Shown: piece after piece, positions 1 through 37,950 of the stretch
Numbering within the stretch: position 1 is the first letter of the stretch
Layout of the letters: each line of letters begins with the position of its first letter
Assembly: GCA_965261085.1 (NCBI GenBank)
Contig: OZ253442.1
Location: 3,776,001-3,840,000 of the forward strand
DNA from: a bacterium
Lineage (GTDB): Bacteria > UBA8248
DNA length: 64,000 nucleotides
Reading direction: 5' to 3'
Translations under genes and position numbers: made by a program
Notes under the pieces: generated by a model
Seen by the model: the letters and a program-made list of their open reading frames with translations, nothing else
The model's database searches: none
Told to the model about the DNA's origin: nothing

Positions 1-48
1 ACGTGATCTCACGCCCGCTGAAAATCTCCCGCCGTCTCTAAACGGACG
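1..48 (+). repeat. Distal part of an att-like site (imperfect palindromic core), cut by the window edge
   Basis: CGCCCGCTGAAAATCTCCCGCCGTCTCTAAACGGACG (12-48) aligns without gaps to CACCCGTTGGAAATACCCTAGTATCTATAAACGGGCG at the end of the 14856-14991 site. Confidence 0.5.
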
Positions 49-159
49 TTTTATATTTTCCGCGGGGTTTACGACTTGGTTGCCTAGTGCCGTTGATTTG
101 ATTCGGAAACGCCGCAAACGGGCGATTGTCACCCATGCGTTGTGCATGTTTATCGAGGA

Positions 160-3100
160 TCAATCGTATCTCTCTGCGCGCTGCTCAAGCCACTGTAAAC
201 GACGATCTGTTTCGATGTCTTGATCAGCCTTGATCAGCCTATCGATAATCTCTGGAACTTCATGATAGCTCCCTGTACTTTTGGGACCACAGACCAACCA
301 AACCAAATCTAGCGTTTCGCGTGGAAATTTCTCCGGTGCTTCTGATGAGGTGATGGCATGAAGACTCCCGTACCCACGATCATATGGAGAGATATAAGGT
401 CGAAGAAGCTCCAAAGCCGCGGGGAATTCGCTGCCTGAACCAACCGCAAGCTCGATCAAATGAGGGGTAAGCGACACATCCTGGAATTCGCGTTCCATCG
501 GCCAAATCTTCTCAAAGAACGGGACTCCAAGCTCTCTCCAAGCTATTTCTACACTTTTCTGATCATTTTGAAGCCACATCGCTAGCACTTCCAGCGTGCC
601 GCAACGGATGGCTTGCGGAGCCTTCCTCAGAACGTTGGCAACTTCAATAGCCGTCAAGCCCCACTGTACAGTATTGTTTCCCTCAAGTTCGGCCAACGTT
701 GGGCGAAGAATGTTCGAAGCAATTGTGGCAGCATGGTGATCTATCGATTCGCTTTCAACCACGCCTCTCAAGATCGCCTTCCTGAACGACTGCGTGACTT
801 CGGGCGTGATCGAACCAAACCTCAACATCACAGCGCGTAGTGCCACCCCTCCATTCTCGGCAGCATTGATGCGCGGGCCAAATATATCGACGACGTATTG
901 CCGATCTATAGTGAGCAAGAATGCTACACTACGCGCTAGTATGGCGCGCCCTAGTTGACCCGCCGCACCTCCAAAATCGCAAATACTCTTTATGAGCCTA
1001 AGTTGAGTCTCTGTAGGCCCGTCTCCTTTTTTCTTGCGCGCTTCAATCTGAAGCAATAGCGTTTGCGAAATCTTCCCTGCCGGGGAATTGATCGCTCTCT
1101 CGTATAGATTGGCCGTGAGATCAAGTAATTCTTCGGGTTGATTCGAAATCGCTTCCAAAAGTTTCACGAGCCAACCATCGACATCCAGGACGCGCTCTCG
1201 CGGTGCGAAGTAGAGCAAGTCGCACAGGCCGGAGACCATTGGCTGCAGGGTATCGGCATCCACTCCATGCAGATGTTCCAGCGCCTGAACTGACAGATCC
1301 TCTCGTACTGCCTTGCTAACCTCATCGCCGAATGCCAGTCCACCGAGAAACTGGTTCCACAGCACTCCGTTTTCTGGCGTTAGTTCTCCTTTGGAAAGTG
1401 AATCGAACGCACCTTGCGGGTCGGATCGGCAAAATGCGGACCAGCCTTGCTGCAAATCGAGGTCAGGACTGCCGGCGAGTTTATGCGCGATCTGAAGACG
1501 ATCATCTTCCAGCGCCTCTACAATCGGCGCAGGATCACCAACAATATCGCGGGCACCGGAGATGTATCCTCCGAAGAAATCCCGATCCTCTACCGCACGG
1601 TTTAGATGGTCGTGCCGTTCGGCTATGGCTGAAAGTTCAGTGGCTCCGACGTTAGATAGAATACCGGCGTCTTGCAACATTTTGAGGCGAAGCCATACCG
1701 CAGAATCGCGTGCATGCGCTCTCCAATCAGTTTCGCCCGGTTCTATGGGGTAGCTGTCGTAATAAGTATCGCCACTTTTTAAAATCCGTTCTTCAACCTT
1801 GTTCACGAGTTCTGCGGATGCTGTCCCCGCCCGTTCTTTCAGCAGAAGCGCAATCTCACGTCGGATCGACCAGAAATCCTGTTCAGAGACCGACAACAAG
1901 ATCGACATCGCCTCGTCCGCATCGAAGAGTGTGGAATTTCGCATCGCGTGCAGACAAAGACGCAGACCGATCCGACCGGGAAGATTCTTCCAACCCGTAA
2001 CAACACTTCTCGTGTGATCACGGTCCGAAATCGCGGCATCGGACAAGGATTCCGTGAGAGCTCGAACCAGATAATTCACACCTTCGCGGTACAGATTCTG
2101 ATCATGGCGTTCAATTGATGGCACTGTGAAATCGTTTTCGTCAAATTCTTCGCCGATCATATCGAGTTCGGTCTCAAGGCTGAGAGCCAAGCGTAGTTCA
2201 GCTGTTGCGAGGTCGAGAATCGCCTTGGCGCGGTCCGGCATCGAACACAAAACATCAACCAACTCCCCCGCGCTGTGTAAATTAGAGATTGTCGTGCGTG
2301 GCCAAATAATGTCGCCAAGTCTTTGGATCGGTTGACCAGCACTCTCTTCACGAGGCTCGCGATGACTTCGGCTTAAAATCAGCCTTGGTGCGATTAGATT
2401 CACGGCTTTTTGTAAATCGCTATCTAGGACCACCCCACTAGCAAGTCGTTGCTTGCTCACATAGTAAGCCAATTCATCGCGCTGCATGGATTCGGCAAGG
2501 CAAAACAGGCGCCACACACGGATCCAGGTTTCGTCCAAACCTTTCACGTGAAGCAATCGTTGTTCGATTTTCTGAGTAAAAGGCTGGCCTAGACGTTCTT
2601 GCCACTCAAGTGCACATTCAAGTCGGTCTCTATTTTGCCAGTCTTTGGCAACCCATGAGGAAATCACCCAAACCTCAACGCCGGACCATAGCCTCTCGTC
2701 CTGAAAGACCTCGAACCATTCGGGATCGACAATTGCATTCAGCGCAACCGACCAGAGATCCCGGTGTCCACCGAAAAGCCAACGTAGTTCTTGCCGAGAA
2801 TCAACATTCGCATCTGCAGCTGGACGTTCTAGAATTTTTCGTGCCCGTTCCCTGCGGGAGCGTTTAGGACGTTCGGCGATCTCCGCCAATGCCGCCAAGT
2901 CGCGCCAAAGGGGCGAGTGGTCGTGTTCCCCTGTTTTGGGATTTACCCTGCAGTAGGGCAACAGCGTCACGGCGAGAGTGCCCCAGGAGCGGGTGGCTTC
3001 CTCCTGGTTATGTTCGTATGAATCGAACGCATAAACCGTTTTGAGATCGGAAAAACGTACCCGGTCCGCTTCAAGCACGTTGAGGAAATAGCGAACCGGC

Positions 3101-3774
3101 GCATCGTTCGCGCTGTATCCCGCGAGCACGATCGCCTTGCAGCGCGCCAGATCGAAAAGAAAGCGCGATGCCCATCCAGAGCGCATATAGGCATCGCCAT
3201 AATCAGCGCTCGTAAGTACCAGCGGAGTGTACTCAAGACCTATTTCGTGATCTGCGAGACGCCCATGAATGTGAATAACGCCTGAAAAAGATGAACTCCC
3301 TGGAGCCGGCAGCGCTTGACCAGCGAAGCTAAAATCTCGGGGTGTTTCATATGGCATGACCTCGACGGCTGCCCGCTCAAGCAGCGTATCGAAATTTGTG
3401 GTGACTACCGTTATCAGGTTGTCGCGATTACGCGACAAGCGAAGGATCGTGCGATGCTGATCCAGACGGGGATGCTCGGGCACTGCGAGCAGTTCCGAGA
3501 CTGTGCGCGTCACTGCGTGGGGGTTCGCCAACCGCCGACTGAGCGATCCCAAGACCTCCTCGAAGCGGCCTGCGTCGAACGCGTATTGCTCCGAGTCTGT
3601 TCTCTCGATCTCTAAGGTCTCGTATGTGCGTTCGACCAACTCCCCAAAATCCGGCATTTGCGGGGCGCTTATCCCTGTGCCACAGAGAAAAACCACTTCA
3701 CCGGCAAGAAGTGAATCGATCAGTTCACCGGGGAATTCAGGACCACCATTTGGAAGGCTAAGGGTCATAACCAT
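160..3774 (-). CDS. Sir2/SIR2_2-domain protein with a long helical C-terminal region; defence-associated sirtuin (Dsr1-like)
   Basis: N-terminal Sir2 motifs VVFLCGTGISAP, TTNFDTLLE, HIHG, GYSAND. Length (~1200 aa) and architecture resemble defence-associated sirtuins. Confidence 0.8.
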   Translation of the reverse strand: MVMTLSLPNGGPEFPGELIDSLLAGEVVFLCGTGISAPQMPDFGELVERTYETLEIERTDSEQYAFDAGRFEEVLGSLSRRLANPHAVTRTVSELLAVPEHPRLDQHRTILRLSRNRDNLITVVTTNFDTLLERAAVEVMPYETPRDFSFAGQALPAPGSSSFSGVIHIHGRLADHEIGLEYTPLVLTSADYGDAYMRSGWASRFLFDLARCKAIVLAGYSANDAPVRYFLNVLEADRVRFSDLKTVYAFDSYEHNQEEATRSWGTLAVTLLPYCRVNPKTGEHDHSPLWRDLAALAEIAERPKRSRRERARKILERPAADANVDSRQELRWLFGGHRDLWSVALNAIVDPEWFEVFQDERLWSGVEVWVISSWVAKDWQNRDRLECALEWQERLGQPFTQKIEQRLLHVKGLDETWIRVWRLFCLAESMQRDELAYYVSKQRLASGVVLDSDLQKAVNLIAPRLILSRSHREPREESAGQPIQRLGDIIWPRTTISNLHSAGELVDVLCSMPDRAKAILDLATAELRLALSLETELDMIGEEFDENDFTVPSIERHDQNLYREGVNYLVRALTESLSDAAISDRDHTRSVVTGWKNLPGRIGLRLCLHAMRNSTLFDADEAMSILLSVSEQDFWSIRREIALLLKERAGTASAELVNKVEERILKSGDTYYDSYPIEPGETDWRAHARDSAVWLRLKMLQDAGILSNVGATELSAIAERHDHLNRAVEDRDFFGGYISGARDIVGDPAPIVEALEDDRLQIAHKLAGSPDLDLQQGWSAFCRSDPQGAFDSLSKGELTPENGVLWNQFLGGLAFGDEVSKAVREDLSVQALEHLHGVDADTLQPMVSGLCDLLYFAPRERVLDVDGWLVKLLEAISNQPEELLDLTANLYERAINSPAGKISQTLLLQIEARKKKGDGPTETQLRLIKSICDFGGAAGQLGRAILARSVAFLLTIDRQYVVDIFGPRINAAENGGVALRAVMLRFGSITPEVTQSFRKAILRGVVESESIDHHAATIASNILRPTLAELEGNNTVQWGLTAIEVANVLRKAPQAIRCGTLEVLAMWLQNDQKSVEIAWRELGVPFFEKIWPMEREFQDVSLTPHLIELAVGSGSEFPAALELLRPYISPYDRGYGSLHAITSSEAPEKFPRETLDLVWLVCGPKSTGSYHEVPEIIDRLIKADQDIETDRRLQWLEQRAERYD

Positions 3775-5017: not shown

Positions 5018-7654
5018 TCAATGTGAACGCATCGCAATCTCGGCTATTCGGTGCACCTCTGTTTTCACGTTTTCGACGGAAGTTGCCGCGTCTCGGATTC
5101 TAGACATGTGCTCCTCGATCACGTTGTTCTTGATTCCGGTCGCGGTCTCTCGCAACTCTACAGGGATTTCGGTCAGGCGCTGGTTGGCCACACCAATGAA
5201 CTCATCAAACACCTCACATCGTGCGAAGATAGTCTTGTGCAATTCGGTCAGTGCTTGCTCCGCCTGTCGATGTGATTCGGAGTGTTTTTTCAGCCACTCG
5301 ACAACCCCTTCGGTGATCGCATGATCAACTTGGAGCGGCATTTCATCCAGGTCGCCAAGCAACTGATTATAGGATTCATCAAAGTACGCTTTAAGTGCGG
5401 TTGCCAGATGGTGTCGTTTCGTCCGAACCGTCCACTTCTCCATAAGCACAAGTCGTAGCGCCCACCGAAGGTTTTCATTCCTCGCACCGGTAACAATATA
5501 TACGAGCGCCAAGACGAAGACTGACGACAATGCGCCGACTAAAACCGATTCAAATAGCCCATTCGGCAAGACTGACAATAGGACCTCAAATTGACTGGGC
5601 GCAAACTCGGCAAAGGCAAACAGCAAAACCGAGAAGGAAAAGGCAACCAAGGCAAAGCGACCAACCAAAGTCGCCCTCGCCCTCCAGATCCGCATCTTCG
5701 AACTGGCAACTCGCGCTCGCTCCGCGCTAACTTCCTGGACGTAACGGTCGACACTTTCTGACAAGCTCGAAAGAAACTCATCGACTCTCTGCTGGCAGAC
5801 GACGTTGATGCGATTTACCACAAGCTTACGGTATCCTTCGCCGAATCCGCTATCGCTGAGTGACGTTTCTTCGTCGTCATCCATAGACGGTTCCAAATCC
5901 TCGGGCTCCTCACGACGTAGAAGCCTCAGGCGTTCCTTGCAATTCTCGGAGCTCTGTGAAATGGCAGTGAAACCAAGGCAGTTCAGGGCATCGATGGACT
6001 CTGCGTGCACAGCCTGCTCTCCTGACTCGTCGAACCCCACGAAACCATGTTCCCGAAGCAGATCGCTTGAGCTAGGCGCTGAAATGTACGCGTAGAAGGA
6101 TTTGACACTGTCATCGTGTCTGCTTTGGAATCTTTCGAGGGAAGATTCAATATCGCGAGCGCTCGAACCAATTTCCCCAGCTTCCGATGTGCTTCGCAAA
6201 TGTTGAGTGGAACTGGCGACAGCCGCTGTGAGTTGTTGATTGACGATCCGAAGAATGCCCCGTGCGCACCTCGTCGATGCACCCGCAAGTCCGGATTCGT
6301 CACCGCTTACATCGACCTGACTGCCAAGGAACTCTTTCGCGTCCACTCCGCCCTTCGTTGGAAACCAACCGCGTGTCCTCCCCATGTAGTGTCTTCGCAC
6401 CCGACGCCACGTAGGCGCGCGCACGCTGCTGAGTTGTCGCTTCAGGGCACCCCTAATTTCTTCCTCGATCTTACGGAGCGTTGGTTCCTGGGTTTCATTG
6501 ATCGCCTGTGGCGTTACAATTGCCTCTACCGCGACAGACCCAGTTGGTATGGTTTGACGCGCGTCGTGCAGCCTCTGCCGGACGGACGCGAAGGAAGACT
6601 CAAGGGACTGGATAAGCTCTTCCACTGCTGTCGCCGTTCCATCAGCACGTCTCTGAGCCTCGCTAAGCAGGCGATTTAGATTTTCGCTACGGGTAGAAAT
6701 GTACGTTAGCAACACACCGAGCGCATCGGCGGCGGTCGCTAGAACATAGCGCCCTTGGGCTTGTCTTATACGCGATCTGTGCTCATCATCAGTGACGATT
6801 GGTAGCAATGCGTTTCTAACCTGTTCTACTCTGAATCCTTCCTTTGAGTCCACGAAGAACCGTTGCGCGGTTTGAAATCTATCAAGGTGATTTTGGAATC
6901 TGGAGTCCCTCCTTAACCTTTCTATGGCTTCGTCCCAGAATGCCTCTGCGTGGTTTGCTTGCCATCCCGTCTCGAAGCTAGCCGTGCGTGACGTCAAAAA
7001 TTCTTCCGCGCTGGTAACAACAATGAGCTTCGGTACATCAGAGAGTTTGTTGAACGCTGTATCTAACAGCTCAAAGTCCTTTTCCTTGTCTGCGAACGGG
7101 CGTCGGCCATCGATCGTGATTACAAGGACGTGACAAAGGTGTAGGAACCGGGTCACGGCTTCATGTTCTGCCGCCTCGTTGCCGAGGCCTGGAGTGTCAA
7201 CCAGGGTCGCATGTTCCAAAAATTCCAAGGCAGGTCCGTGGACAACGTCCACAGTGTCGATGCTTGTATATGCGGACTGCCTTATCGAGTGGGCGTGGTC
7301 GCGGTGCGAAATCAGCGTGATCTTCGTATCCGTCGGGTGCAGCCCAACGTCCCGCTTGTATCCGGGATTTTGAGCAGATGAAATGCCGAGTAGTGCATTG
7401 ATCAGACTCGATTTTCCTGAGCTAAAGTGCCCAAGAAAGCCTACCAACGCGATACTCTCCGATTGGCTCAGCAAGTCCGGAATAGACTTGGCGATGTTAT
7501 GGAGCTGAGTCCAGGCACGACATCGCTCAAGATACTCCAACGTCGTGGCGGGGGAGTCGAGTAAGTCTTCATCGATATTTAGTATCGACAGGGACTCCGA
7601 GTTATCGAGCGCACCCACCGCCTGATAAAGAGACTCCAGCGTCTGCTCAAACAT
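5018..7654 (-). CDS. Dynamin-like GTPase with a C-terminal transmembrane hairpin
   Basis: P-loop GHFSSGKSS, switch T (HPTDT), DTPG, long helical stalk, two hydrophobic segments near aa 665-725. Confidence 0.8.
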   Translation of the reverse strand: MFEQTLESLYQAVGALDNSESLSILNIDEDLLDSPATTLEYLERCRAWTQLHNIAKSIPDLLSQSESIALVGFLGHFSSGKSSLINALLGISSAQNPGYKRDVGLHPTDTKITLISHRDHAHSIRQSAYTSIDTVDVVHGPALEFLEHATLVDTPGLGNEAAEHEAVTRFLHLCHVLVITIDGRRPFADKEKDFELLDTAFNKLSDVPKLIVVTSAEEFLTSRTASFETGWQANHAEAFWDEAIERLRRDSRFQNHLDRFQTAQRFFVDSKEGFRVEQVRNALLPIVTDDEHRSRIRQAQGRYVLATAADALGVLLTYISTRSENLNRLLSEAQRRADGTATAVEELIQSLESSFASVRQRLHDARQTIPTGSVAVEAIVTPQAINETQEPTLRKIEEEIRGALKRQLSSVRAPTWRRVRRHYMGRTRGWFPTKGGVDAKEFLGSQVDVSGDESGLAGASTRCARGILRIVNQQLTAAVASSTQHLRSTSEAGEIGSSARDIESSLERFQSRHDDSVKSFYAYISAPSSSDLLREHGFVGFDESGEQAVHAESIDALNCLGFTAISQSSENCKERLRLLRREEPEDLEPSMDDDEETSLSDSGFGEGYRKLVVNRINVVCQQRVDEFLSSLSESVDRYVQEVSAERARVASSKMRIWRARATLVGRFALVAFSFSVLLFAFAEFAPSQFEVLLSVLPNGLFESVLVGALSSVFVLALVYIVTGARNENLRWALRLVLMEKWTVRTKRHHLATALKAYFDESYNQLLGDLDEMPLQVDHAITEGVVEWLKKHSESHRQAEQALTELHKTIFARCEVFDEFIGVANQRLTEIPVELRETATGIKNNVIEEHMSRIRDAATSVENVKTEVHRIAEIAMRSH

Positions 7655-7708: not shown

Positions 7709-8051
7709 TCACTCGCACACGACACCGTCGCCGTCGCGGTCGGCCAGATCAGCCACGGTCGCTTCGAGCTTGGGCTCCGTCTCGACAGGCGTCAGACCAG
7801 CCTTGATGCATGCGATGAGCTTGGCGGCGTCCTTACGGGCTTGATCGGGTGCCACATCCCTGTGCCAGCCGACGGTGACGCGCTTCGACTTGCCGTTCGC
7901 CCGGACCTGCACCACATAGACCTTGAGCCCGCTGGGGTACACACGAAGACCGAAGCCGGAAGCTCGCTATTCCAAAAAACGCGTCCTTGCCGTCGACGGA
8001 GAGGCGGTCCACGATACGCTTGGAGAGCGTTCGGTACTGGCGTTCGGGCAT
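7709..8051 (-). pseudogene. N-terminal (arm-DNA-binding) fragment of a tyrosine integrase, frameshifted and truncated
   Basis: MPERQYRTLSKRIVDRLSV... then in another frame VYPSGLKVYVVQVR...QARKDAAKLIACIKAG. Paralogous to the N-termini of 35473-36570 and 36567-37748. Confidence 0.85.
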
Positions 8052-8119
8052 GTCCTCGTTCCTGCGATAGGGGTCGTCATGCCGGAGCGCGGATTGAGGG
8101 CCTCGATGTGGTGAATTCT

Positions 8120-8270
8120 CGCGTAAGCAATCCAAAAGCAACCGGCTGAAATTCGAGGTGCATTGAAGCGCATCGGAGGCGAGAATGCAAGGGGCAGAGT
8201 GGGCCGTGAAATTTTGGAATATAAATTATTTACAACAACTTATATCGGATGAGCCCAGGTCAGCGCATGC
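8120..8270 (-). promoter_or_regulatory. Integrase-proximal element end with sigma70-like promoter
   Basis: Minus strand TTGCAT-N17-TTCAAT (8190-8162). Homologous to 37795-37950 (GTAA.CAAT, CATT.AAGCG, AATGCAAGGGG, AT-rich IHF-like tract). Confidence 0.55.
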
Positions 8271-8439
8271 CAGCGCAGGTCGCGCCGCTCGGCGGTCTCG
8301 CGCGCCAGCGTCCCGCCGAGCGTCAGCCAGCCGGCTGAGCGGGATGGAATCGACGGTTGGTTCAGGATGGGTTATAGGTACCTCCTCTAGTGGATTGGAT
8401 GGGAAAGCTCTAAATCCCTCTCTGGTCTTCCCGGGTTCG

Positions 8440-8665: not shown

Positions 8666-8799
8666 TTGCGCCGATGCTTTCCTAATCCCCATCACTCCAC
8701 GAACGAACCTTTGCCGTAAGCGATGGGATGGACGCGCCCTCCCGAAGGCATCACACTGTGGTGAGGTGGTGTCGTTACCGCCCTGCAGGAGGGGAATCC

Positions 8800-9825: not shown

Positions 9826-9894
9826 GCGGCAGGCGAGCGGATAATGCCGGGAATGTGAGCAGGTCGGAGGACAGGTAAGGGGCATACGGTCAAT

Positions 9895-12520: not shown

Positions 12521-12524
12521 CGCC

Positions 12525-15570: not shown

Positions 15571-15577
15571 AGCGCGT

Positions 15578-27990: not shown

Positions 27991-28066
27991 TCATCGCCCC
28001 GTCGCCGCTGCGGGGTCGGCATCGCGCAGAAACGCATCCCGTGCGGGCCGGACTCCGATGACAAGG

Positions 28067-30376
28067 TCACATGGCATCGACCTCTTCCACCATCAGCGTG
28101 TAGGTGCCCTGGCAGATGCCAAAAGCGCCTGCCGACACGTAGTAGGTGGCGCCCTCATCCGGCGTGAAATCCACCCGGCTGTTGCGGTGGTCCACGCCGA
28201 TGTCGTCATTCCTCGTGCGGGCGATCCGGTCGCCCTCCTCGTCGTAGATCCCGCGCAGATACGGGTCGGGCAGCGTGCCGTCGCCCGTCGGCGACCCCTT
28301 CAGTTCGAAGCGGTACGTCTTGTGCGCCTCCAGCTCGACCGCGAACCAGTCCTGGTCGCCGAGCGGCTCGATGTCGCCCGTGGCCGAGCCGCCGACCACC
28401 ACCCTCCCGGTCGTGGTGGAGTCGGCCGCGTAGTCGTCCGAAACCTCGGTGACCGCCAGCGTGTAGGTGCCGACATAACCGCCGTCAGCGCCTGCCGACA
28501 CGTAGTAGGTGGCGCCCTCAGCCGGCGCGAAATACACCCGGCTGTTGCGGCCCACACCGCTGTCGTAATTCGTCGTGCCGTCGATCGGCTCGCTGTCGGC
28601 ATCGTGGATCCCGAGCAGAACCGGGTTAATCAAGGTGCCGCCGCCGGTCGGCGACCCCTCCAGGTCGAACCGATAGAGCTTGTCCGCCTCCAGGGTCACC
28701 GCAAACCAGTCGGTGTCGCCGGGGGCATCGATGTTGCCCGTGGCCGAGCCGCCGACCACAACCCGGCCGGAGGTGGTGACGTCGGCCGGCAGGTCGGCGT
28801 CGCCCTCCGAGACGCTCGCCGCCTCGTCCTGGGCCTGGGCTGTCTCGGGCTCCGCCGGCGGGACGACCGTTTCCGCAGGCGGCTCGTCCTGTTCCTGTTC
28901 CTGCGCCGCTAGCCGCTCCGCCTCCAGCCGCGCCACTTCGGCCGGGTCCGCGTCGCCCACCCCGTAGCGGAACACATACGCGTTCGCACCCGCCTCCCGC
29001 GCCTCCACCCGTACGTAATACGTCCCCGCCGGCAGCGTCTCGCGCATCCACTCGTTCGCCGTGCCGGAACGCTCGCTGCTGTGCAGCACGTTGCCCTCTG
29101 CGTCCTCCAGCACCAGGTCCGCATCGGCGTCCTGGCGCCGAAGCCCAAGCGCCACCTCGCGCGGCCCGCTCAGCGTGAACCGGTACCACGCCACCCCATC
29201 GGCGCCGCCGTCCAGCGTACCCCGCGGGAACCGCGCCGCTGCCAACTCCGTGATGTCCCCGAGGTCCTCGGCCGCCGCGCGCGCCGGGTCCGCAACAGGC
29301 GGATTGCCCTCCACCGGCTCATCCACGTCGGTGACGCTGACGGTCGCGGTGGTGTCGGTCGTCTGATCCCCGTCACTCGCCCGGACAGTCAGCTCGAAGC
29401 TGGTCGAACCGGTCTCGTAGTCCTCGCCCCCGCCCGTGTAGAACAGCTCGCCGCCGGCCGCGTCGATCTCGAACAGCCCCGCCGCGTTGCCCCCCTCGAT
29501 GCTGTAGGTCACTGAACCGCCGTCCGGATCCGTCGCCGAGACCGTGCCCAGCGATATCCGGTTCGCGCTGCCGTCCGTGTTCTCCGCCAGATCGAAGCCG
29601 TAGCCCGCCTGCCCAAACGCCGGTGCTTCCGCCACGTCGGTGACGTTGACGGTCGCGGTGGTGTCGGTCGTCTGATCCCCGTCGCTCGCCCGGACAGTCA
29701 GCTCGAAGCTGGTCGAACCGGTCTCGTAGTCCTCGCCCCCGCCCGTGTAGAACAGCTCGCCGCCGGTCGCGTCGATCTCGAACAGCCCCGCCGCGTTGCC
29801 GCCCTCGATGCTGTAGGTCAGCGTGTCGCCTTCCGGGTCTACCGCCGAGACCGTGCCCAGCGATATCCGGTTCGCGCTGCCGTCCGCGTTCTCCGGGAGT
29901 TCGAAACCGTAGAACTGAGAGCCGAATGCCGGTGGCTGCTGCTGAACCTGCTCCTGCGCGACCGGCGGATCCTCTGGATCCGGGTCCGGCGCCACGATCG
30001 GCGGCGAGGTGTCCGTCACCTCGACCTCGTAGGTGCCCCGGCCGGAAAAGATCCCCGCCGCGCCCGCCGCGATGTAGTGGGTCCCGCTCTCGGTCGCCGT
30101 GAAGGTCACCCGGCTGTTGTAGCCTTCGCCCCCGTCGTCGTTCGTCGTACGCGGAATGAGATTGCCGCCGGAATCGTGGATGCCGCGCAGATAGGGATCG
30201 CTCAGCGTGCCGTCGTCCGTGGGGCCGCCTCTCAGATCGATGACGTAGGTCCGCCCCGCCACCAGCTCCACCGCGAACCAGTCGCTGTCGCCGTTGCTCC
30301 CGATGTTGCCCGTGGCCGTGTCGCCCACCGCGACGGCGCCCGTGGTCTGTACGTCGGCCGTATAATCGTCAGGCAT
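28067..30376 (-). CDS. Acidic secreted protein with PPC-like and cadherin repeats (paralogue A)
   Basis: DxDWFAVxLxAG..Y repeats, two cadherin units (V.A.DP[ED]G...YSIEGGN..GLFEID...DYE); no signal peptide; ends VDAM. Confidence 0.82.
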   Translation of the reverse strand: MPDDYTADVQTTGAVAVGDTATGNIGSNGDSDWFAVELVAGRTYVIDLRGGPTDDGTLSDPYLRGIHDSGGNLIPRTTNDDGGEGYNSRVTFTATESGTHYIAAGAAGIFSGRGTYEVEVTDTSPPIVAPDPDPEDPPVAQEQVQQQPPAFGSQFYGFELPENADGSANRISLGTVSAVDPEGDTLTYSIEGGNAAGLFEIDATGGELFYTGGGEDYETGSTSFELTVRASDGDQTTDTTATVNVTDVAEAPAFGQAGYGFDLAENTDGSANRISLGTVSATDPDGGSVTYSIEGGNAAGLFEIDAAGGELFYTGGGEDYETGSTSFELTVRASDGDQTTDTTATVSVTDVDEPVEGNPPVADPARAAAEDLGDITELAAARFPRGTLDGGADGVAWYRFTLSGPREVALGLRRQDADADLVLEDAEGNVLHSSERSGTANEWMRETLPAGTYYVRVEAREAGANAYVFRYGVGDADPAEVARLEAERLAAQEQEQDEPPAETVVPPAEPETAQAQDEAASVSEGDADLPADVTTSGRVVVGGSATGNIDAPGDTDWFAVTLEADKLYRFDLEGSPTGGGTLINPVLLGIHDADSEPIDGTTNYDSGVGRNSRVYFAPAEGATYYVSAGADGGYVGTYTLAVTEVSDDYAADSTTTGRVVVGGSATGDIEPLGDQDWFAVELEAHKTYRFELKGSPTGDGTLPDPYLRGIYDEEGDRIARTRNDDIGVDHRNSRVDFTPDEGATYYVSAGAFGICQGTYTLMVEEVDAM

Positions 30377-30499
30377 GGCTGCCCCCTTTCCTTTCCCGTG
30401 CAATCAATTAAATATAAGTTCCCGTACCTTCGTCCGCCCGTACCCGTGGACGGACATCAGAGGGCCGGAGACGGAACCGCCCGGCGGTCTAGCGGACTT

Positions 30500-30802
30500 G
30501 CGATCTATTCATGAGGTTTGAGGCCTTGCGCAATATGCATCCGTGGAAACACGGATTCCCGTACACGTCATCTTTCTTCTTTCCCTTTCACGAAGCGCCC
30601 CATGAACCGGGCCCGTACGACCAAGTCGAGCGACACGGAGCCGGCTCGTGGTACGGAACCAGGCGCCTCCTGGCCAAAGTCTGATCACTTTTCAGGATAA
30701 ACGATTCGGACACACCTTGTGAAACGGGAAATTTTTGGGCTAGGGACACTTTAATTTGGGCAAATGCGGGGCCCTTGCGGGGGGGGGGGGGGCGATTGCC
30801 CT
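30500..30802 (-). promoter_or_regulatory. Conserved upstream module, copy 3
   Basis: Two degenerate heptamers (CATGAGG TTTGAGG), palindrome ATCCGTG-GAAA-CACGGAT (30539-30556), G14 tract at 30779-30792. Confidence 0.7.
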
Positions 30803-30870
30803 CGGCGCCCCGGCGCCTCGGGTCCGGTTCGGATCGACGCCATTCTGTCCGGACCGGCGCGGACCCGCCA

Positions 30871-33800
30871 TCACATGCCGTCGACTACCCACAGCGTGTA
30901 GGTGCCCAGGTGATTGCCAGAAGCGCCTGCCGACACGTAGTAGGTGGCGCTCTCGTCCGGCGTGAAAGACACCAAGCTGTTGTTGCCCCAGCCGCCGTCG
31001 TCATTCGCCGTGCCGTCGATCAGTTCGCCGTCCTCGTCGTAGATGCCGCGCAGATACGGGTCACCCAGGGTGCCGTGGTGCGTCGGCGACCCCATCAGGT
31101 GGAAGCGGTACGTCTTGCCCTCCCCCAGATCGACTGCGAACCAGTCCCGGTCACCGGGGGTTCCGATCGTACCCGTGACCCAGCCGTCGACCGCAACCGT
31201 CCCGGTCGTGGCGGGGTCGGCCGCGTAGTCGCCGTCCGGATTCTCGCTCTCGCTGACCCTCAGCGTGTAGGTGCCGGTCCAATAATCGTGGTCAGAGCCT
31301 GCCGACACGTAGTAGGTGGCATCCTCATTCGGTGTGAAAGACACCCGGCTGTTGCGGACCCGACCGCCGTCGTCGTTCGTCGTGCCGTCGATCCGGTTGC
31401 CGCCGGCATCGTAGATCCCGCGCAGATACGTGTCACGCAAGGTGCCGCTCCACGACCAGATTCCCTCCAGGTCGAACTGGTACGTCTTGCCCGCCTCCAG
31501 GGTCACCGCGAACCAGTCCCGGTCGCCGAAGTATCCGACATTGCCCGTGGCCGAGCCGCCCACCACAACCGTCCCGGTCGTGGTGGCATCGGCCGCGTAG
31601 TCGTCGGCCGGATTCTCGCTGACCCTCAGCGTGTAGGTGCCGGTTCTATTGCTGTAACCGCCGGCCGACACGTAGTAGGTGGCGTCCTCATCCGGCGTGA
31701 AATACACCCGGGTGTCGTAGCTTGCGCCGCCGTTGTCGTTCGTCGTGCCGTCGATCAGTTCGCCGTTGGCATCGTAGATGCCGCGCAGATACGGGTTGCG
31801 CAACGTGCTGGGGCCGGTCGCCCGCGCCTCCAGCTCGAACCGATAGAGCGTGCCCGCCTCCAGGGTCACTGCAAACCAGTCCCGGTCGCCATTGTATTCG
31901 ATAGTGCCCGTGGCCGAGCCGCCGACCACAACCCTCCCGGTCGTGGTGGAGTCGTCCGCGTAGGCGTCCGCGTAGTCGTCCGTCGCGTCGCTGACCGCCA
32001 GCGTGTAGGTGCCGACATCATTGCCGTAACCGCCTGCCGACACGTAGTAGGTGCCGCCCTCATCCGGCCTGAAATACACCCGGCTGTTGTAGTCCTCGCC
32101 GCCGCCCCAGTCCGTCGTGCCCTCGTGCCGGTCGCCGTTGGCATCGTAGATCCCGCGCAGATACGGGGCACCCAACGTGCCGTCGCCGGTCGACACTCCC
32201 TTGAGGTCGAAGCGATAGAGCTTGCCCGCCTCCAGGGTCACCGCAAACCAGTCGCGGTCGCCGGCGGGCTCGATAGTGCCCGTGGCCGAGCCGCCGACCA
32301 CAACCATCCCGGTCGTGGCGGTGTCGGCCGCGTAGTCGTCGGCCGGAGTCTCGCTGACCGCCAGCGTGTAAGTGCCGCGCCAACCGCCGTAAGCTCCTGC
32401 CGACACGTAGTAGGTGGCGTCCTCATCCGGCGTGAAATACACATAGCTGTTGACGCCCACGCCGCTGCCCCAGTCCGTCGTGCCGGCGTACCGGTCGCCG
32501 TCCTCGTTGTAGATCCCGCGCAGATACGTGTGCTCCAAGGTGCCGTCGCCGGTCCACGACCCCTTCTGGTCGAACCGGTAGCTCTTGCCCGCCTCCAGCT
32601 CGACCGCGAACCAGTCCCGGTCGCTGTTTCTCCCGATGTTGCCCGTGGCCGAGCCGCCGACCGCGACCCGGCCCGTGGTGGTGACGTCGGTCGGCAGGTC
32701 GGCGTCGCCCTCCGAGACGCTCGCCGCCTCGTCCTGGGCCTGGGCTGTCTCGGGCTCCGCCGGCGGGACGACCGTTTCCGCAGGCGGCTCGTCCTGTTCC
32801 TGTTCCTGCTGCTGAACCTGCTCCTGCGCGACCGGCGGATCCTCGGAATCCGGGTCCGGCGCCACGATCGGCGGCGAGGTGTCCGTCACCTCGACCTCGT
32901 AGGTGCCCCGGCCGGAAAAGATCCCCGCCGCGCCCGCCGCGATGTAGTGGGTGCCGCTCCCGGTCGCCGTGAAGGTCACCCGGCTGTTGTAGCCTTCGCC
33001 CCCGTCGTCGTTCCTCGTACGCGCAATGAGATTGCCGTCGGAATCGTGGATACCGCCCAGATAGGGATCGCTCAGCGTGCCGTCACCCGTGGGGCCGCCT
33101 CTCAGATCGATGACGTAGGTCCGCCCCGCCACCAGCTCCACCGCGAACCAGTCGCGGTCGCCGTTGCTCCCGACCTCGCCCGTGGCCGTGTCGCCGACCG
33201 TCACCCGCCCGCTCGTGGAGGCGCCCGCCGAGAAGTCCTCGCCGGCAGGTTCCGATACCGTCTGCGGCGTACTCTGGTCCGGTTGCGCAACAGGCGGATT
33301 GCCCTCCACCGGCTCATCCACGTCGGTGACGCTGACGGTCGCGGTGGCATCGGTCGTCTGATCCCCGTCACTCGCCCGGACGGTCAGCTCGAAGCTGGTC
33401 GAACCGGTCTCGTAGTCCTCGCCCCCGCCCGTGTAGAACAGTTCGCCGCCGGCCGCGTCGATCTCGAACAGCCCCGCCGCGTTGCCGCCCTCGATGCTGT
33501 AGGTCACTGAACCGCCGTCCGGATCCGTCGCCGAGACCGTGCCCAGCGATATCCGGTTCGCGCTGCCGTCCGCGTTCTCCGGGAGTTCGAAACCGTAGAA
33601 CCGAGAGCCGAATGCCGGTGGCTGCTGCTGAACCTGCTCCTGCGCCGATGCCTGCTCCGCCTCCAGCCGCGCCACTTCGACCGGGTCCGCGTCGCCCACC
33701 CCGTAGCGGAACACATACGCGTTCGCACCCGCCTCCTGCGCCTCAACCCGTACGTAATACGTCCCCGCCGGCAGCGTCTCGCGCATCCACTCGTTCGCCG

Positions 33801-34431
33801 TGCCGGAACGCTCGCTGCTGTGCAGCACGTTGCCCTCTGCGTCCTCCAGCACCAGGTCCGCATCGGCGTCCTGGCGCCGAAGCCCAAGCGCCACCTCGCG
33901 CGGCCCGCTCAGCGTGAACCGGTACCAGGCCACCGCATCGGCGCCGCCGTCGAGCGCGCCCCGCGGGAACCGCGCCGCCGCCAACTCCGTGATGTCCCCG
34001 AGGTCCTCGGCCGCCGCGCGCGCCGGCTCCGGCTCGGCCGGTGGCGGGTTTTCCACCGACCCCGGCGTCACGTCCGACACCCCCAGCGTGTAGGTCCCCG
34101 TCTCGTCGCGGTCGCCCGACGCACGCACGTAGTAGGTCCCAGTCTCACGCGCCGTGAACGTCACCCGGCTGTCGCGCCCGCCCTCGAAATCGTCGTTGTA
34201 GCTGCCCGACTGGTAGCGCCCCTCGCTGTCGTAGATGGCTCGCAGGAAGGTGTCGCGCAGCGTCCCGCCCCCGCTCGGGCTGCCTCCGAGGTCGAACTGG
34301 TAGGTCCGCCCCGCCTCCAACTCCACCGCGAACCAGTCCTGGTCATGGGCCGTCTCGATGGTCGCGGTGGCCGTACCGCCCACCGCGACCGAACCCGTGG
34401 TGCCGGTGTTTGCCGTATAATCGTCAGTCAT
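30871..34431 (-). CDS. Acidic secreted protein with PPC-like and cadherin repeats (paralogue B)
   Basis: Eight PPC-like units and one cadherin; shares near-identical DNA blocks with 28067-30376; ends VDGM. Confidence 0.82.
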   Translation of the reverse strand: MTDDYTANTGTTGSVAVGGTATATIETAHDQDWFAVELEAGRTYQFDLGGSPSGGGTLRDTFLRAIYDSEGRYQSGSYNDDFEGGRDSRVTFTARETGTYYVRASGDRDETGTYTLGVSDVTPGSVENPPPAEPEPARAAAEDLGDITELAAARFPRGALDGGADAVAWYRFTLSGPREVALGLRRQDADADLVLEDAEGNVLHSSERSGTANEWMRETLPAGTYYVRVEAQEAGANAYVFRYGVGDADPVEVARLEAEQASAQEQVQQQPPAFGSRFYGFELPENADGSANRISLGTVSATDPDGGSVTYSIEGGNAAGLFEIDAAGGELFYTGGGEDYETGSTSFELTVRASDGDQTTDATATVSVTDVDEPVEGNPPVAQPDQSTPQTVSEPAGEDFSAGASTSGRVTVGDTATGEVGSNGDRDWFAVELVAGRTYVIDLRGGPTGDGTLSDPYLGGIHDSDGNLIARTRNDDGGEGYNSRVTFTATGSGTHYIAAGAAGIFSGRGTYEVEVTDTSPPIVAPDPDSEDPPVAQEQVQQQEQEQDEPPAETVVPPAEPETAQAQDEAASVSEGDADLPTDVTTTGRVAVGGSATGNIGRNSDRDWFAVELEAGKSYRFDQKGSWTGDGTLEHTYLRGIYNEDGDRYAGTTDWGSGVGVNSYVYFTPDEDATYYVSAGAYGGWRGTYTLAVSETPADDYAADTATTGMVVVGGSATGTIEPAGDRDWFAVTLEAGKLYRFDLKGVSTGDGTLGAPYLRGIYDANGDRHEGTTDWGGGEDYNSRVYFRPDEGGTYYVSAGGYGNDVGTYTLAVSDATDDYADAYADDSTTTGRVVVGGSATGTIEYNGDRDWFAVTLEAGTLYRFELEARATGPSTLRNPYLRGIYDANGELIDGTTNDNGGASYDTRVYFTPDEDATYYVSAGGYSNRTGTYTLRVSENPADDYAADATTTGTVVVGGSATGNVGYFGDRDWFAVTLEAGKTYQFDLEGIWSWSGTLRDTYLRGIYDAGGNRIDGTTNDDGGRVRNSRVSFTPNEDATYYVSAGSDHDYWTGTYTLRVSESENPDGDYAADPATTGTVAVDGWVTGTIGTPGDRDWFAVDLGEGKTYRFHLMGSPTHHGTLGDPYLRGIYDEDGELIDGTANDDGGWGNNSLVSFTPDESATYYVSAGASGNHLGTYTLWVVDGM

Positions 34432-34554
34432 GGCTGCCCCCTTTCCTTTCCCGTGCAATCAATTAAATATAAGTTCCCGGACCTCCGTCCGCCCGTACCC
34501 GTGGACGGACATCAGAGGGCCGGAGACGGAACCGCCCGGCGGTCTAGCGGACTT

Positions 34555-34840
34555 GCGATCTATTCTTGAGGTTTGAGGCCTTGCGCAATATGCATCCGTG
34601 GAAACACGGATTCCCGTACACGCCATCTTTCTTCTTTCCCTTTCACGAGGCGCCCCATGAACCGGGCCCGTACGACCAAGTCGAGCGACACGTAGCCGGC
34701 TCGTGGTACGGAACCAGGCGCCTCCTGGCCAAAATATGATCACTTTCCAGGATAAACGATTCGGACACACCTTGTGAAACGGAAAATTTTTGGGCTAGGG
34801 ATATTTGTATTTGGGCATATGCGGGGCCTTGCGGGGGGGT
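34555..34840 (-). promoter_or_regulatory. Conserved upstream module, copy 4
   Basis: CTTGAGG TTTGAGG, palindrome at 34594-34611, G7 tract at 34833-34839; 34430-34835 is nearly identical to 30375-30780. Confidence 0.7.
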
Positions 34841-34910
34841 CGAGCGTTCGGCGTACCCGGAGACGGATGCCGGGATAGCGGCGTATTTGGGCAGGCTGTA
34901 AGGAAGCCCG

Positions 34911-35231
34911 GCGGCCACAGGCGAGGGGAGGAGACATGAGATGTCGAAACCCCCCAAACCGTAGGAACACGGCGCTACGGTGGCGATGGCGAAAGGCGAA
35001 ACAGGACGGAGGCGCGGTTGCGTAGTGCGGGTGGTAGGGGAGACGGGATGGTTCCGGCGACTCGGACCCGCCGGGATGCGCGGGAGTTTGAATTCGCCCG
35101 CTTTCGTTTTGATTGCATATTGCGGAAGGCGGATTCCGGATGAAGTTAGTAAAATAGGTATTTACGATTATATCAATAAGGTAATGGAATTTCTTCGCCG
35201 ATAAAAACACTCATCCGCCTCTAAGCGGGCG
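34911..35231 (+). repeat. ~320-bp direct repeat, copy 2, ending in att-like site C (35098-35231)
   Basis: Near-identical to 21151-21471. Confidence 0.9.
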
Positions 35232-35434
35232 TGAAACGGTATCGACGGACTCGTTATCCTGCCGGTTTCCGGGAAAATTTCCCTACCGCTACTTTCTCCT
35301 TCGCGCGCCTCTCCTGTCGGAAGTGGACTGATACCGGTTCAGGACGCGGCTCGGTGTTTTTCGTATGAACGTAGCCGGATACCCAACTTTCGTAAAATAT
35401 TCGTCGACATGTCATGCCTGCATATTGATCAAAT

Positions 35435-35571
35435 CCGGTTGCGAAACGATTACGTAATGAGGAAAGGCGCAATCAAGCGGGTTGCGGTGTTGGTGAGAAT
35501 AACAAGTGATAACAAATAGATACGAGACTTTTGAGCACGTGGAAATCCCCGTATGTTGCACAAGAGTGGCG
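35435..35571 (+). repeat. Divergent att-like site D overlapping the broken 3' end of an integrase
   Basis: CCGGTTGCGAAACGATTACGTAATGAGGAAAGGCG...TAACAAATAGATA...GTGGAAAT...GTGGCG, with the same spacing as sites A-C. Confidence 0.55.
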
Positions 35572-36570
35572 GAGGTCATGGAGGCGAACGCCGTCAAGGC
35601 CCGCGTGCGTGCGGACGGTCCGCCAGGCGTCGTCCAGCTTCCTGAGGTGCGTGCCCGGTTTCCTGCCGGGGATCACCCAGGGGCTGCCGGGCAGGCGCGG
35701 GAGAGCGGCGAGAAGCTTGACCACAGGCTGTGAGAGCGAAACGACCCGCGCGCCCGTCTTGGAGTCCGCGAGCCGCAGTTCCGCTTGATTGAGCGCCACC
35801 TCCTCCCAGCGCAGCGTGAGGATCTCCGATTTCCGGCACCCGGTCAGGATCAGGAGCTTGATGGCGGCCACCGCGCTCGCCGACGCGCCGCCCTTCGCCT
35901 CCGCCTCGTCCAGGGCGCGTCCCAGACGCACGAATTCCGACTCGGTGAGGAAGCGCTCCCGCCTGCGGCCGGGGTATTCGGAGATGGCGCGGCAGGGGTT
36001 TGATAATCCGTCAGGCGCCAGTTCCCAGCTCTCAGCCAGTTTGTACATCGCGGACAGCGCCCGGACGGCCTGGTTCGCGGCCGCGGGCGTCGCGCGCAGC
36101 CGCTGGTGGAGTTCCACCACGTGTTTGCGCCCGACCGACGCGAGGGGCAGCTTTCCCAGCGCCGGCACGATGTGCTTGCAAACCACGGAGCTGACCGTCT
36201 TCACGGTGCGCGGCTTACAGCGCACGGAGACGTATTCGGCTAGATAGCGCTTCGCGAGCTCGGCCACCGTGGGACCGCCTGCGGGGTTGAGTGGCTTGGG
36301 CACAGCCTCCTCGCCCGCCTTGATCCGCGCGATGACGAGCGCCGCGCGCTTGCGCGCCTGATCGGCATGTATCACCCCGTGGCGGCCCACCGCCACGCGC
36401 CTGGGGCCTCCCGGCCCCCGCGCCTGGGCGACGTACACCTTGGCCCCCGTGGGATATACCCGCACCCCGAAGCCGGTGAGGTCGCGGTCCCAATACACGG
36501 TGTCCTTCTCGACCGTTAGTTTCGTGACCGCGCGGTTCGAGAGCGTTTTCATCGTGGGCTTCGTCGTCAT
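35473..36570 (-). pseudogene. Tyrosine integrase truncated after HDLRHS (no LGH or catalytic Tyr)
   Basis: Arm-binding N-terminus, TGCRKSE and HDLRHS are present, then an unrelated tail; the paralogue continues YASRALALGE...LLGH...ARY. Confidence 0.82.
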
Positions 36571-37748
36571 CGCTCCATCCTCCCGTTCACGACGTGGACG
36601 CCGATGCTCTCGCCTACACGGGCGGCCGCCGCCTTCTCGGCGTCTCGCATCAGGTGTGCGTAGCGCGCCGTGCTCACCACGTGGCGGTGGCCGAGCAGCC
36701 TGCCGATCGCCGATAAACTCTCGCCGAGCGCCAGCGCCCGCGATGCGTAGCTATGTCTCAGGTCATGGATTCGTACATCGTCGAGCCCCGCCCGCTCCCT
36801 CACGGCCCCCCAGTAGTAGGAGAGGTTCCCCAGGCGGTTCTTCCCGTACCTTGAGGGGATCACCCAGGAGTTGTCCGGCGAGCGGGGGACCTCCTCCAGC
36901 ACCCTCTTGACGGGCGCCGTGAGCGGAACCATCCTCGGTCCCGCCTTGGCGTCCCTGAGCCTGAGCTCCCCCGCCGTGCGGTCCACGTCGTCCCACCTGA
37001 GGTCCAGTATCTCGCTCCGCCTGCACCCGGTCAGGGCCAGGAGCCTGATCGCCGCCACCGCAGGCGTCCACGTCCTCTCCTCCGCCTCCAGGTCACGGAG
37101 CGCGCGGCCCAGGCGGCGGAATTCCTCTTGCGTCAGGAACCGCTCCCGCTTACGCGTCCGGAAGCGGCGCACCGCCCGGCAGGGGTTCTCCCCGGGCGGG
37201 AGCAGGTCCCACGCCTCGGCCATCTTGAACATTTTAGAGAGTAGCCCCAGGGCCGCGTTGGCCACGGCGGGCGTCGCGCGGAGGCCGTGATGGAGTGCGG
37301 CGACCTCCGCCCGGCCGACCTCTTCGAGCGCCGTACCGCCCAGCGCAGGCTCGATGTGGTTCTCTAGCAAGGAGCGGTACGTCCTGGCGGTGTCGGGCTT
37401 GCAGTGCGTCCCGACGTGGTCGCTCATGAAACGCTCGGCAAGGCCCGCCACGGTGAGTTCCGCCTCGGGCGGCTTGGGCTCGGGCTCCTCGCCCCGCTTG
37501 ATGCGGTCGATGACGAGTGCGGCTTGTTTCCTCGCCTCATCGCACGACAACTCGCCGTGTTTGCCCAGCGTCACGCGCTTCGGTCCCCACGGACCCCGGG
37601 ACTGCACCACGTAGACCTTCCTGCCCGTGGCGTAGACCCGCACCCCGAAGCCCGCCAGCTCCCGGTCCCAGAAGACGGCGTCGTTCGTCTCGACAGATAG
37701 CGCGTCGACTACGCGTTTGGTAAGCTTGCGTTCGCTTCTTTTCGGCAT
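36567..37748 (-). CDS. Intact tyrosine integrase with arm-binding domain
   Basis: TGCRRSE, DAK, HDLRHSYAS, LLGH, TARYAH; 4-bp overlap with the downstream integrase. Confidence 0.93.
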   Translation of the reverse strand: MPKRSERKLTKRVVDALSVETNDAVFWDRELAGFGVRVYATGRKVYVVQSRGPWGPKRVTLGKHGELSCDEARKQAALVIDRIKRGEEPEPKPPEAELTVAGLAERFMSDHVGTHCKPDTARTYRSLLENHIEPALGGTALEEVGRAEVAALHHGLRATPAVANAALGLLSKMFKMAEAWDLLPPGENPCRAVRRFRTRKRERFLTQEEFRRLGRALRDLEAEERTWTPAVAAIRLLALTGCRRSEILDLRWDDVDRTAGELRLRDAKAGPRMVPLTAPVKRVLEEVPRSPDNSWVIPSRYGKNRLGNLSYYWGAVRERAGLDDVRIHDLRHSYASRALALGESLSAIGRLLGHRHVVSTARYAHLMRDAEKAAAARVGESIGVHVVNGRMER

Positions 37749-37794
37749 GGGCGCTCCCTGAAAATCGTGTCACGGGCCTGAGGATATGGACGAT

Positions 37795-37950
37795 CCGTAA
37801 TCAATACGCATACGTCCGGCATCAAACGTGCGTCCATTAAAGCGTAAATCTGACGTAAATGCAAGGGGAGGCGAAAAAGAAAACATGATAATTATCGCTT
37901 TTAATACAGCGATTTATCGTGCTTGAGGGTATCCGGTAGTACGATTGTCC
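37795..37950 (-). promoter_or_regulatory. Integrase promoter and probable right boundary of the island
   Basis: TTGCAT (37864-37859)-N17-TTTAAT (37841-37836); AT-rich IHF-like tract; homologous to 8120-8270; gene content changes to core functions beyond it. Confidence 0.55.

Follow-up and report, generated by a model that had tools for sequence, protein, structure and literature searches.

A long repeat as the probable integrase-distal end of large, nested genomic islands in a bacterium of the UBA8248 lineage

Introduction

In integrons, which combine the integrase IntI with attI and attC sites, co-oriented recombination sites partition cargo beside a tyrosine recombinase, and the attP sites of lambda/P4-type integrases consist of arm sites, IHF bends and a core. 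Here we describe a long repeat, which we call R, in a stretch of bacterial DNA 64,000 nucleotides in length (the window; lineage UBA8248, assembly GCA_965261085.1, contig OZ253442.1, positions 3,776,001 to 3,840,000 of the forward strand). By analogy, the closest known process appears to be the tandem or nested accretion of islands. The relevant sections of three published reports describe composite islands that form by integration into a resident attachment (att) site, decay to members without an integrase, and undergo modular excision (PMC5704250, PMC3146451, PMC4057263).

An initial annotation of the window had proposed an integron-like cassette array, in which self-contained blocks of cargo between directly oriented att-like sites would be excised, added or reordered by two adjacent tyrosine integrases. 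Our analysis points instead to R as the conserved integrase-distal end of large integrase-bearing islands, and to one such island, within the window, that is nested in an integrase gene of another. We consider this reading probable, though with appreciable room for doubt. Positions are those of the window unless they are preceded by the word genome or by the handle of a related genome.

Results

R is a long repeat with copies throughout the genome

R has a conserved body of 163 bp and, with a ~70-base 5' extension, reaches ~235 bp in full-length copies. Using a profile built from the copies in the window and the genome and iterated with nhmmer, we detected 50 copies at E<=1e-3 in the source genome (G000; 4,267,820 bp). 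The five stretches that the initial annotation had singled out can be aligned with one another and are as follows.

E, 3 to 58 (genome 3775974-3776048), plus strand: 3' part of an R copy that starts 26 bp before the window; class I end (...TCTAAACGGACG)
A, 14771 to 15017 (body 14834-14994), plus strand: R copy, E 4.6e-40; class I end (...TATAAACGGGCGAAA)
B, 21235 to 21499 (body 21313-21474), plus strand: R copy, E 4.2e-43; class I end (...TCTAAGCGGGCGGAA)
C, 34996 to 35257 (body 35074-35232), plus strand: R copy, E 2.5e-39; class I end (...TCTAAGCGGGCGT)
D, 35425 to 35561, plus strand: diverged R-like arm, the true right end of an inner island (d, described below), with the junction GTTGCAC followed by AAGAGTGG at 35561/35562

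The recurrent, directly oriented motif is therefore real: A, B and C are strong matches on the plus strand, and E is a partial one (model positions 81-160, window -26 to 48, E 8.9e-09 in the nhmmer scan of the genome). D had no match in that genome-wide scan; with filters off and the search confined to positions 1-40000, it gave a weak colinear match (35425-35556, plus strand, E 0.0024, 12.4 bits). Three of the four full sites are thus strong, and D, marginal by sequence, is backed by its context.

Profile similarity is not confined to B and C, which are nearly identical; A is also strong, and most copies in the genome are only 70-80% alike. B, C and the copy at genome 1424747 have in common a segment of ~575 bp, at 95-98% identity, that takes in R and the leader upstream of it. 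As had been noted from the window alone, the identity of B and C stops at the end of the core, exactly after ...AAGCGGGCG. Of 18 genomes from the same genus, 13 have matches to R, as do three of seven genomes of a second family of the class and many metagenome-assembled genomes, some of them labelled Nitrospinota. A scan of the genome collection with an 18-mer taken from R was noisy, with R-family matches at 66 of 109 loci. The conserved blocks ATGCGC, TTTGAWT and TATCAA within R are, at a guess, putative arm-type or IHF sites.

An inner island splits an integrase gene of an outer island

A 114.3-kb composite island (genome 3699671-3813987), absent from three relatives (G008, G006 and G004), has positions 1-37987 as its right end. 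G008 joins genome 3699227 to 3813972-3814205, and G006 and G004 join at ~3696100-3696240, with 0.5-1.9 kb between. In G008, the matches to genome 3691853-3699227 and 3813972-3816933 stand 490 bp apart, with G006 and G004 arranged likewise, and the empty site reads ...GGGGTTTTTCGATAAATTAATGGCTATT... (also given as ...TTTCGATAAATTAATGGC...). The features at the right end of this outer island are listed here.

int2, 36567 to 37748, minus strand: integrase gene of the outer island, with Arm-DNA-bind_3 and catalytic domains
int1, 35473 to 36570, minus strand: truncated integrase gene of the outer island, homologous to intact copies only over ~35562-36570 (to HDLRHS)
37749 to 37974, minus strand: integrase-proximal arm and promoter region of the outer island, conserved upstream of five integrase pairs
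37975 to 37987 (genome 3813975-3813987), no strand assigned: 13-bp direct repeat TTTCGATAAATTA, right edge of the composite island; its partner is at genome 3699658-3699670

The left repeat is adjoined on its inner side by R copy 41 (minus strand), whose 3' tip (...CACCTAA) abuts it, and the right repeat by the int2 promoter region. The outer island has int2 and int1 at one end and R at the other. The two genes overlap at stop and start. The int2 product matches PF00589 (5.2e-20) and PF13356 (3.7e-10), and its blocks LTGCRRSE, HDLRHS and LLGH..Y align to those of an archaeal XerC-like recombinase structure (4a8e); with these active-site blocks and an N-terminal arm-binding domain, it is a predicted tyrosine recombinase. 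The int1 product, which has no LLGH..Y catalytic end, does not qualify as one because its sequence ends after HDLRHS. Further integrase pairs lie at genome 217365, 1091943-1094301, 2394199-2396554 and 3742652-3745009 (n=4), together with a single gene at 1423475 and many fragments, and the integrases of the genome all carry Arm-DNA-bind_3 and Phage_integrase domains.

The truncation of int1 marks the right end of the inner island, d, which spans 69.1 kb within the outer island (genome 3742422-3811561), ends at window position 35561, and splits int1 at the HDLRHS codons. Intact int1 genes read ...HDLRHSFASRALALGE..LLGH..RYAHL, whereas int1 in the window reads ...HDLRHS and then continues into the reverse complement of D. 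The missing C-terminus (SFASRALALGEGLTVIGKLLGHARIETTSRYAHL...; SFASRALALGE..LLGH..RY..) is found at genome 3742268-3742421 on the same strand. The left junction of the inner island is GGCAAACGAATGG followed by CACAG, and then comes the island's own intact integrase pair (genome 3742652-3745009, plus strand, 31 kb upstream of the window). The right junction, at D, can also be written GTTGCAC followed by AAGAGTGGCGG, and the two junctions share an imperfect ~8-bp repeat (AACGAATGG / AAGAGTGG). No transfer genes were present among the inner-island open reading frames (ORFs) scanned.

E, A, B and C thus fall inside the inner island, between its integrase pair on the left and its end at D, as internal R copies. 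The array E-A-B-C-D is the distal 35.5 kb of the inner island, and the neighbouring integrases in the window are victims of that island, not partners of R. The proposal that the adjacent integrases service the sites is thus not supported: they are the pair of the outer island, with int1 truncated, the opposite polarity, and the core TTTCGATAAATTA. D has its opposite island end at genome 3742422, 69.1 kb away. The array is not an integron. Against the NCBIfam integron-integrase model TIGR02249 (cut-off 265), int2 scores 47.1 bits and int1 18.8; the array abuts the 3' end of another island's truncated integrase gene, in opposite polarity, which is not the layout of an attI site; and R has no conserved hairpin. 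We found neither an IntI, nor folding attC sites, nor an attI beside a servicing integrase.

The D-to-HDLRHS junction is present in three different integrase genes: in the window, at genome 1424414 (in a gene with 58% amino acid identity to int1 of the window), and at G008 1113519. A pattern search for this junction in 23 genomes gave 16 matches, the other 13 of which had two mismatches and did not contain the box. Given the recurrence of the junction, the target of the subtype represented by D appears to be the conserved sequence that encodes the catalytic box in related integrases. Orphan C-terminal integrase fragments that start near the HDLRHS box are located at genome 2396577-2396765, 2399130-2399300, 2409488-2409601 and 1112805-1112939; these may be footprints of further insertions into integrase genes.

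The outer-island attachment site sits in a REP-like (repetitive extragenic palindromic) repeat of ~125 bp with ~20 copies, examples of which are at window 37975-38094 and at genome 3699541-3699670, 217020-217143 and 1091168-1091295. Several other small repeat families are present in the genome, one with >60 copies (near genome 2393291-2393364). A 50-nt motif homologous to the R body (GTTTGAT..CGTATGCG..TTGATTAC; 37793-37846, minus strand) lies downstream of the integrase promoter and ahead of the int2 start, and 37793-37832 forms a weak R-like core motif. Matching motifs are at genome 1091883-1091960 and 2394139-2394216. The inverted repeats that flank the motif vary in sequence by locus and keep their complementarity, and the motif could be a regulatory hairpin or a binding site.

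Islands elsewhere end in R, and R follows the strand of their integrases

Island a (genome 217128-281111) is laid out like the outer island, with ATTTATCGAAA at both ends and R beside the far repeat; it also has F-type transfer genes and an HTH_17 protein. Island b has GACGAGC at both ends (genome 1091740 and 1213556); a 22,287-bp match to G006 at 99.5% ends at genome 1213559, inside the GACGAGC motif, and the matching element in G006 occupies another location in the chromosome. Island c (genome 2393864-2517134) is absent from all five relatives examined, and GACGGGCAAA is common to its two ends. From left to right, it carries an integrase pair, defence genes in the middle, transfer genes, an HTH_17 protein, an S24 repressor, and R at the right edge, beyond which are housekeeping genes. 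Its transfer set (TrwC, TrwB and TraC/U/N/F/H/G) comprises relaxase and coupling-protein genes together with an F-type secretion system, and island c has the features of an integrative conjugative element (ICE). Class I tips, the type of A, B, C and E, are also found at the ends of islands b and c.

Across five islands, R lies on the same strand as the island integrases in 27 of 28 copies (binomial tail 1e-7, with copies that are not independent). All of E, A, B, C and D are on the plus strand and match the integrases of the inner island, and in G008 all four R copies at 3344294-3368949 are on the strand of the integrase pair at 3387704-3389895. Since conjugative islands elsewhere end in R, and given this polarity, we infer that R is an att-type arm. 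The view of the sites as att-type arm plus core therefore holds up: they form the ends of islands that are absent from relatives, the polarity is shared, and homology breaks at the 3' end. The view of them as a local array does not, because the 50 copies are spread over the whole genome.

The G006 relative of islands b and c was considered as a test of gain or loss of R-bounded units; its middle part is unrelated, and it was uninformative. An inverted duplication of 11,170 bp at 100% identity (genome 1155939-1167108 / 3722707-3711538) links island b to the outer island, and its left edge is inside an R copy, at TGCGC. Within the left 43 kb of the outer island, the sequence duplicated in island b matches relaxase and transfer-region DNA of island c.

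R as a DNA-level element

Several other identities for R were tried and set aside. As an RNA element, it had no relevant Rfam match in window positions 1-40000 at E<=1, and RNAalifold, run with RNA energy parameters on 72 R copies from this and other genomes, predicted no shared structure for either strand (0.0 and -0.1 kcal/mol). As a small protein, it has stops in all six frames in most copies. As a promoter of flanking genes, its orientation relative to its neighbours is random (14, 14, 12 and 10 copies for the four classes). With no Rfam match, fold, open frame or gene-linked orientation, R is a DNA-level element. A tRNA-derived att was rejected, the window having no tRNA. A weak ARAGORN call of tRNA-Pro that overlaps the 5' end of R at genome 1424747 is rich in mismatches and is not found in B or C, and the 3' end of transfer-messenger RNA (tmRNA) bears just a loose likeness to the 5' end of R.

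By eye, no terminal inverted repeats or target duplications were apparent in the flanks of 37 full-length copies. Among relatives, no difference in the presence or absence of R only was seen at the three lone-copy loci compared. A putative empty site at the methylmalonyl-CoA mutase locus was also set aside as uninformative, the neighbour being different in every relative.

Cargo of the inner island within the window

The stretches between the R copies of the window hold the following features.

160 to 3774, minus strand: Dsr1-like SIR2 defence protein, with a match to the N-terminal ~300 amino acids only
5018 to 7654, minus strand: dynamin/LeoA-like GTPase
7712 to 8660, minus strand: two remnants of a further integrase pair (amino acids 26-117 and 250-306; tblastn)
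8716 to 10120, plus strand: IS110-family element; the copy at 13403-14807 is inverted and 100% identical
10202 to 13397, plus strand: IS66-family transposase ORF and DruA-like (DUF4338) ORF, also at the end of island a (genome 278009-279506)
13403 to 14807, minus strand: IS110-family element, inserted just 5' of R copy A
15578 to 20427, minus strand: TbpB-like lipoprotein (15578-16648) and autotransporter (16687-20427)
20900 to 21312, minus strand: leader or upstream region of the autotransporter operon, homologous to 34640-35073; accompanies R in B, C and genome 1424747
21565 to 22669, minus strand: two S24-peptidase genes
22708 to 34458, minus strand: three repeat-rich adhesin genes (Calx-beta/fn3; cadherin/PPC)

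The cargo genes named in the initial annotation are all present: SIR2, the GTPase, the DruA-like ORF, the lipoprotein and autotransporter, the S24 pair, the three adhesins, and the two integrases. The blocks are not self-contained, as had been supposed; that between E and A is a patchwork with two identical IS110 copies, the IS66 unit and the integrase remnants. No intact integrase lies in the blocks between E, A, B, C and D, so that internal, directly oriented att copies bound units without an integrase, the arrangement of an accreted array.

Cargo modules are reshuffled at R copies. An S24 module lies 3' of the R tip in seven of the 46 copies listed, and the 5' flanks of these seven belong to different types. 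The succession R, S24, one or more adhesins, leader and R is found at three loci, and paralogues of the adhesin, S24 and transfer modules are dispersed over six. The suggestion that cargo order differs between strains was borne out in G008, in which the autotransporter, IS66/DruA and adhesin blocks stand in a different order with R between them. Its companion, that block boundaries coincide with the core, was not, for reasons taken up in the Discussion. The read data were short assembled contigs from four runs of one sample and are uninformative on excision. Over 27700-38400, they had no joint at C, D or the 13-bp repeat and none at an R tip, which says nothing for or against excision; the only joints were between paralogous leaders and adhesin repeats, and one contig spans 37742-38004 unchanged.

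The 160-3774 product has 1204 amino acids and scores 375 bits with Dsr1 models, against an NCBIfam cut-off of 1400; its remaining ~900 residues had no match in the models scanned. The ORF called at 21485-22624, following B, is an artefact of the wrong strand that covers the two S24 genes. Two perfect runs of a heptamer, (CTTGAGG)x17 at 20694-20812 and x13 at 27590-27680, lie in small ORFs just upstream of the autotransporter and of an adhesin gene. Because a change in copy number of a 7-base unit shifts the frame, these runs are candidates for slipped-strand phase variation.

The IS66-family ORF, of 772 amino acids, has a long N-terminal extension and the DruA-like ORF next to it. The unit is found at 86-89% identity in three relatives (G008, G004 and G014), and in G000 it adjoins island ends. 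One and the same IS110-family element is inserted at an identical position of R, immediately 5' of its CGACA block, in three copies (A, genome 2516797 and genome 280942); the elements at the two genomic copies span 2515371-2516779 and 279517-281059. Other R copies are cut at the same point by different sequences. It is known that attC sites are targets of other IS110-family members. These insertion points suggest a preference of IS110 elements for R, like that of other members of the family for REP sites.

Discussion

The probable reading, that R is the conserved integrase-distal end of large integrase-bearing islands, suggests a mechanism. R would be a lambda-style "P arm" with a short core at its 3' tip, in a family of islands, some of them conjugative, whose opposite end would carry two P4-like tyrosine integrase genes in an operon. 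As for the internal copies, E, A, B and C would be junctions left by the successive insertion of island-like units into earlier ends, and these junctions would later have been blurred by insertion sequence (IS) elements and duplication. Two conjugative islands elsewhere have integrase pairs that appear to use 3' ends of this type. The internal copies could still be recombined by those pairs or by that of the inner island itself, and the neighbouring pair is unlikely to be the actor on them. We think live exchange at the internal copies fairly unlikely.

A number of findings weigh against this interpretation. Twenty of the 50 R copies lie outside the five mapped islands, and the 14 of these that were annotated (13 loci) all stand between ordinary metabolic or transport genes. 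At least two lone copies are at the same locus in other species, and R can therefore persist without an obvious island. In island c, ten internal R copies lie in the middle of the element, between the backbone and the transfer genes, a position that is unexpected under simple end-on accretion; moreover, a clean attB was not seen at the empty site of this island because the G000 flanks hold extra small repeats. The block edges in G008 are 80-600 bp away from R rather than at the core. The 27 of 28 copies that share polarity overstate the independent support, since R copies are related by duplication. We know of no standard reaction of lambda-type integrases in which R would recombine with R, and no recombination directionality factor was identified in the window.

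The lone copies between housekeeping genes, some of which keep their locus across species, would also suit an R that is an autonomous dispersed repeat, either REP-like, similar to a miniature inverted-repeat transposable element (MITE), or a binding site for a host protein, and that is unrelated to integrases, the islands simply tolerating or attracting its insertions. That the genome is rich in other small repeats and that IS110-family elements target R, as they do REP elements, fits the same idea. However, R lies inside the direct repeats of islands and is absent from the empty sites in relatives, the R-like D ends an insertion in a gene that normally has no R, and orientation follows the integrases in nearly every island copy; no terminal inverted repeats or target duplications were seen by eye in the flank listing. 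Integrase remnants lie near several lone copies on the matching strand, and some of these copies may thus be the last trace of decayed islands. We judge a repeat independent of integrases to be quite improbable. Even less credence goes to the live, integron-like cassette system first proposed, with self-contained blocks moved by the adjacent integrases (35473-37748). Its co-oriented att-like sites, the divergence of B from C where R ends on the 3' side, and the different block order in G008 would be expected of it, but the adjacent int1 has no catalytic C-terminus, the pair is opposite in polarity and differs in its core (TTTCGATAAATTA), IS elements and integrase remnants lie inside the blocks, the integrases are far under the integron-integrase cut-off, and R forms no conserved hairpin. 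Such a system is very unlikely here.

A closer question is whether the internal copies were ever sites of insertion. Terminal R copies could be att arms while E, A, B and C are inert relics of segmental duplication and homologous recombination among paralogous islands. Consistent with this are the 575 bp at 95-98% identity, leader included, that are common to B, C and genome 1424747, the start of the 11,170-bp, 100% duplication inside an R copy, the paralogous adhesin, S24 and transfer modules at six loci, and the joints of the short contigs between paralogous leaders and adhesin repeats. On the other hand, R copies that are mostly 70-80% alike are a poor substrate for homologous exchange, the S24 module joins different R body types at the same position, and homology breaks at the R tip. 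Inert relics are possible, if doubtful. Going beyond the reading that we prefer, one may picture a self-nesting system in which paired-integrase islands share a long arm, one subtype attaches in the HDLRHS box and thereby disables the resident, and the internal and solo arms are live sites that exchange defence and adhesin modules. Arm-type integrases would then in effect support a form of cassette exchange in which the units measure 0.3-30 kb; we offer this picture as a speculation that is rather unlikely to be correct.

If R is indeed the distal end of these islands, what looked like a local curiosity becomes a genome-wide rule for an uncultured lineage: one recognisable long repeat would mark the distal ends and the internal junctions of large islands, and these islands carry most of the variation in defence and surface adhesins. 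R would then be a practical handle for delimiting islands in metagenome-assembled genomes. Two questions are raised, namely, whether two operon-encoded integrases act jointly on asymmetric sites, and whether islands compete by insertion into each other's integrase genes.

Unlike integrons, the locus has neither an IntI-type integrase nor an attC-like site that folds, its cargo units are mosaics of 0.3-15 kb, and the integrase beside it is not cognate. Like lambda/P4 attP systems, it has integrases with Arm-DNA-bind_3, and R is long, with an AT-rich middle and an exchange point at one tip. The tandem accretion of ICEs, integrative mobilizable elements (IMEs) and decayed cis-mobilizable elements, in the ICESt1/ICESt3 family and others, yields, in the sections of PMC5704250 that deal with it, composite islands with internal att sites, decayed members without an integrase, and complex excision. 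As far as those sections go, the present islands differ in that they share an arm of 163-235 bp rather than a short core, R occurs 50 times per genome, with as many as 11 copies in a single element, every island has a two-integrase operon, and one subtype inserts into integrase genes, which results in nesting rather than in side-by-side tandems.

The Dehalococcoides ssrA islands, in the parts of PMC3146451 that concern them, are alike in that many direct att repeats within 100 kb delimit tandem islands with strain-specific cargo, some of which have no integration module, and in a related metagenomic element in the same report the att repeat is embedded in an integrase gene. According to these parts, those arrays depend on a serine recombinase, a single tmRNA-gene target and a 20-bp repeat, whereas here we find paired tyrosine integrases, several targets (a REP-like repeat and integrase box II) and a long arm. 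PAISt of Streptomyces turgidiscabies, as outlined in the pertinent sections of PMC4057263, is likewise a large ICE with an internal att copy and modular excision by one tyrosine recombinase; its sites are an 8-bp palindrome at three positions, with excision shown by experiment, whereas the present case is one of sequence comparison. The islands described here differ from these three published systems in that the arm they share is long and present in many copies, their integrases are paired, their targets are REP-like repeats and integrase genes, and one island is nested within another.

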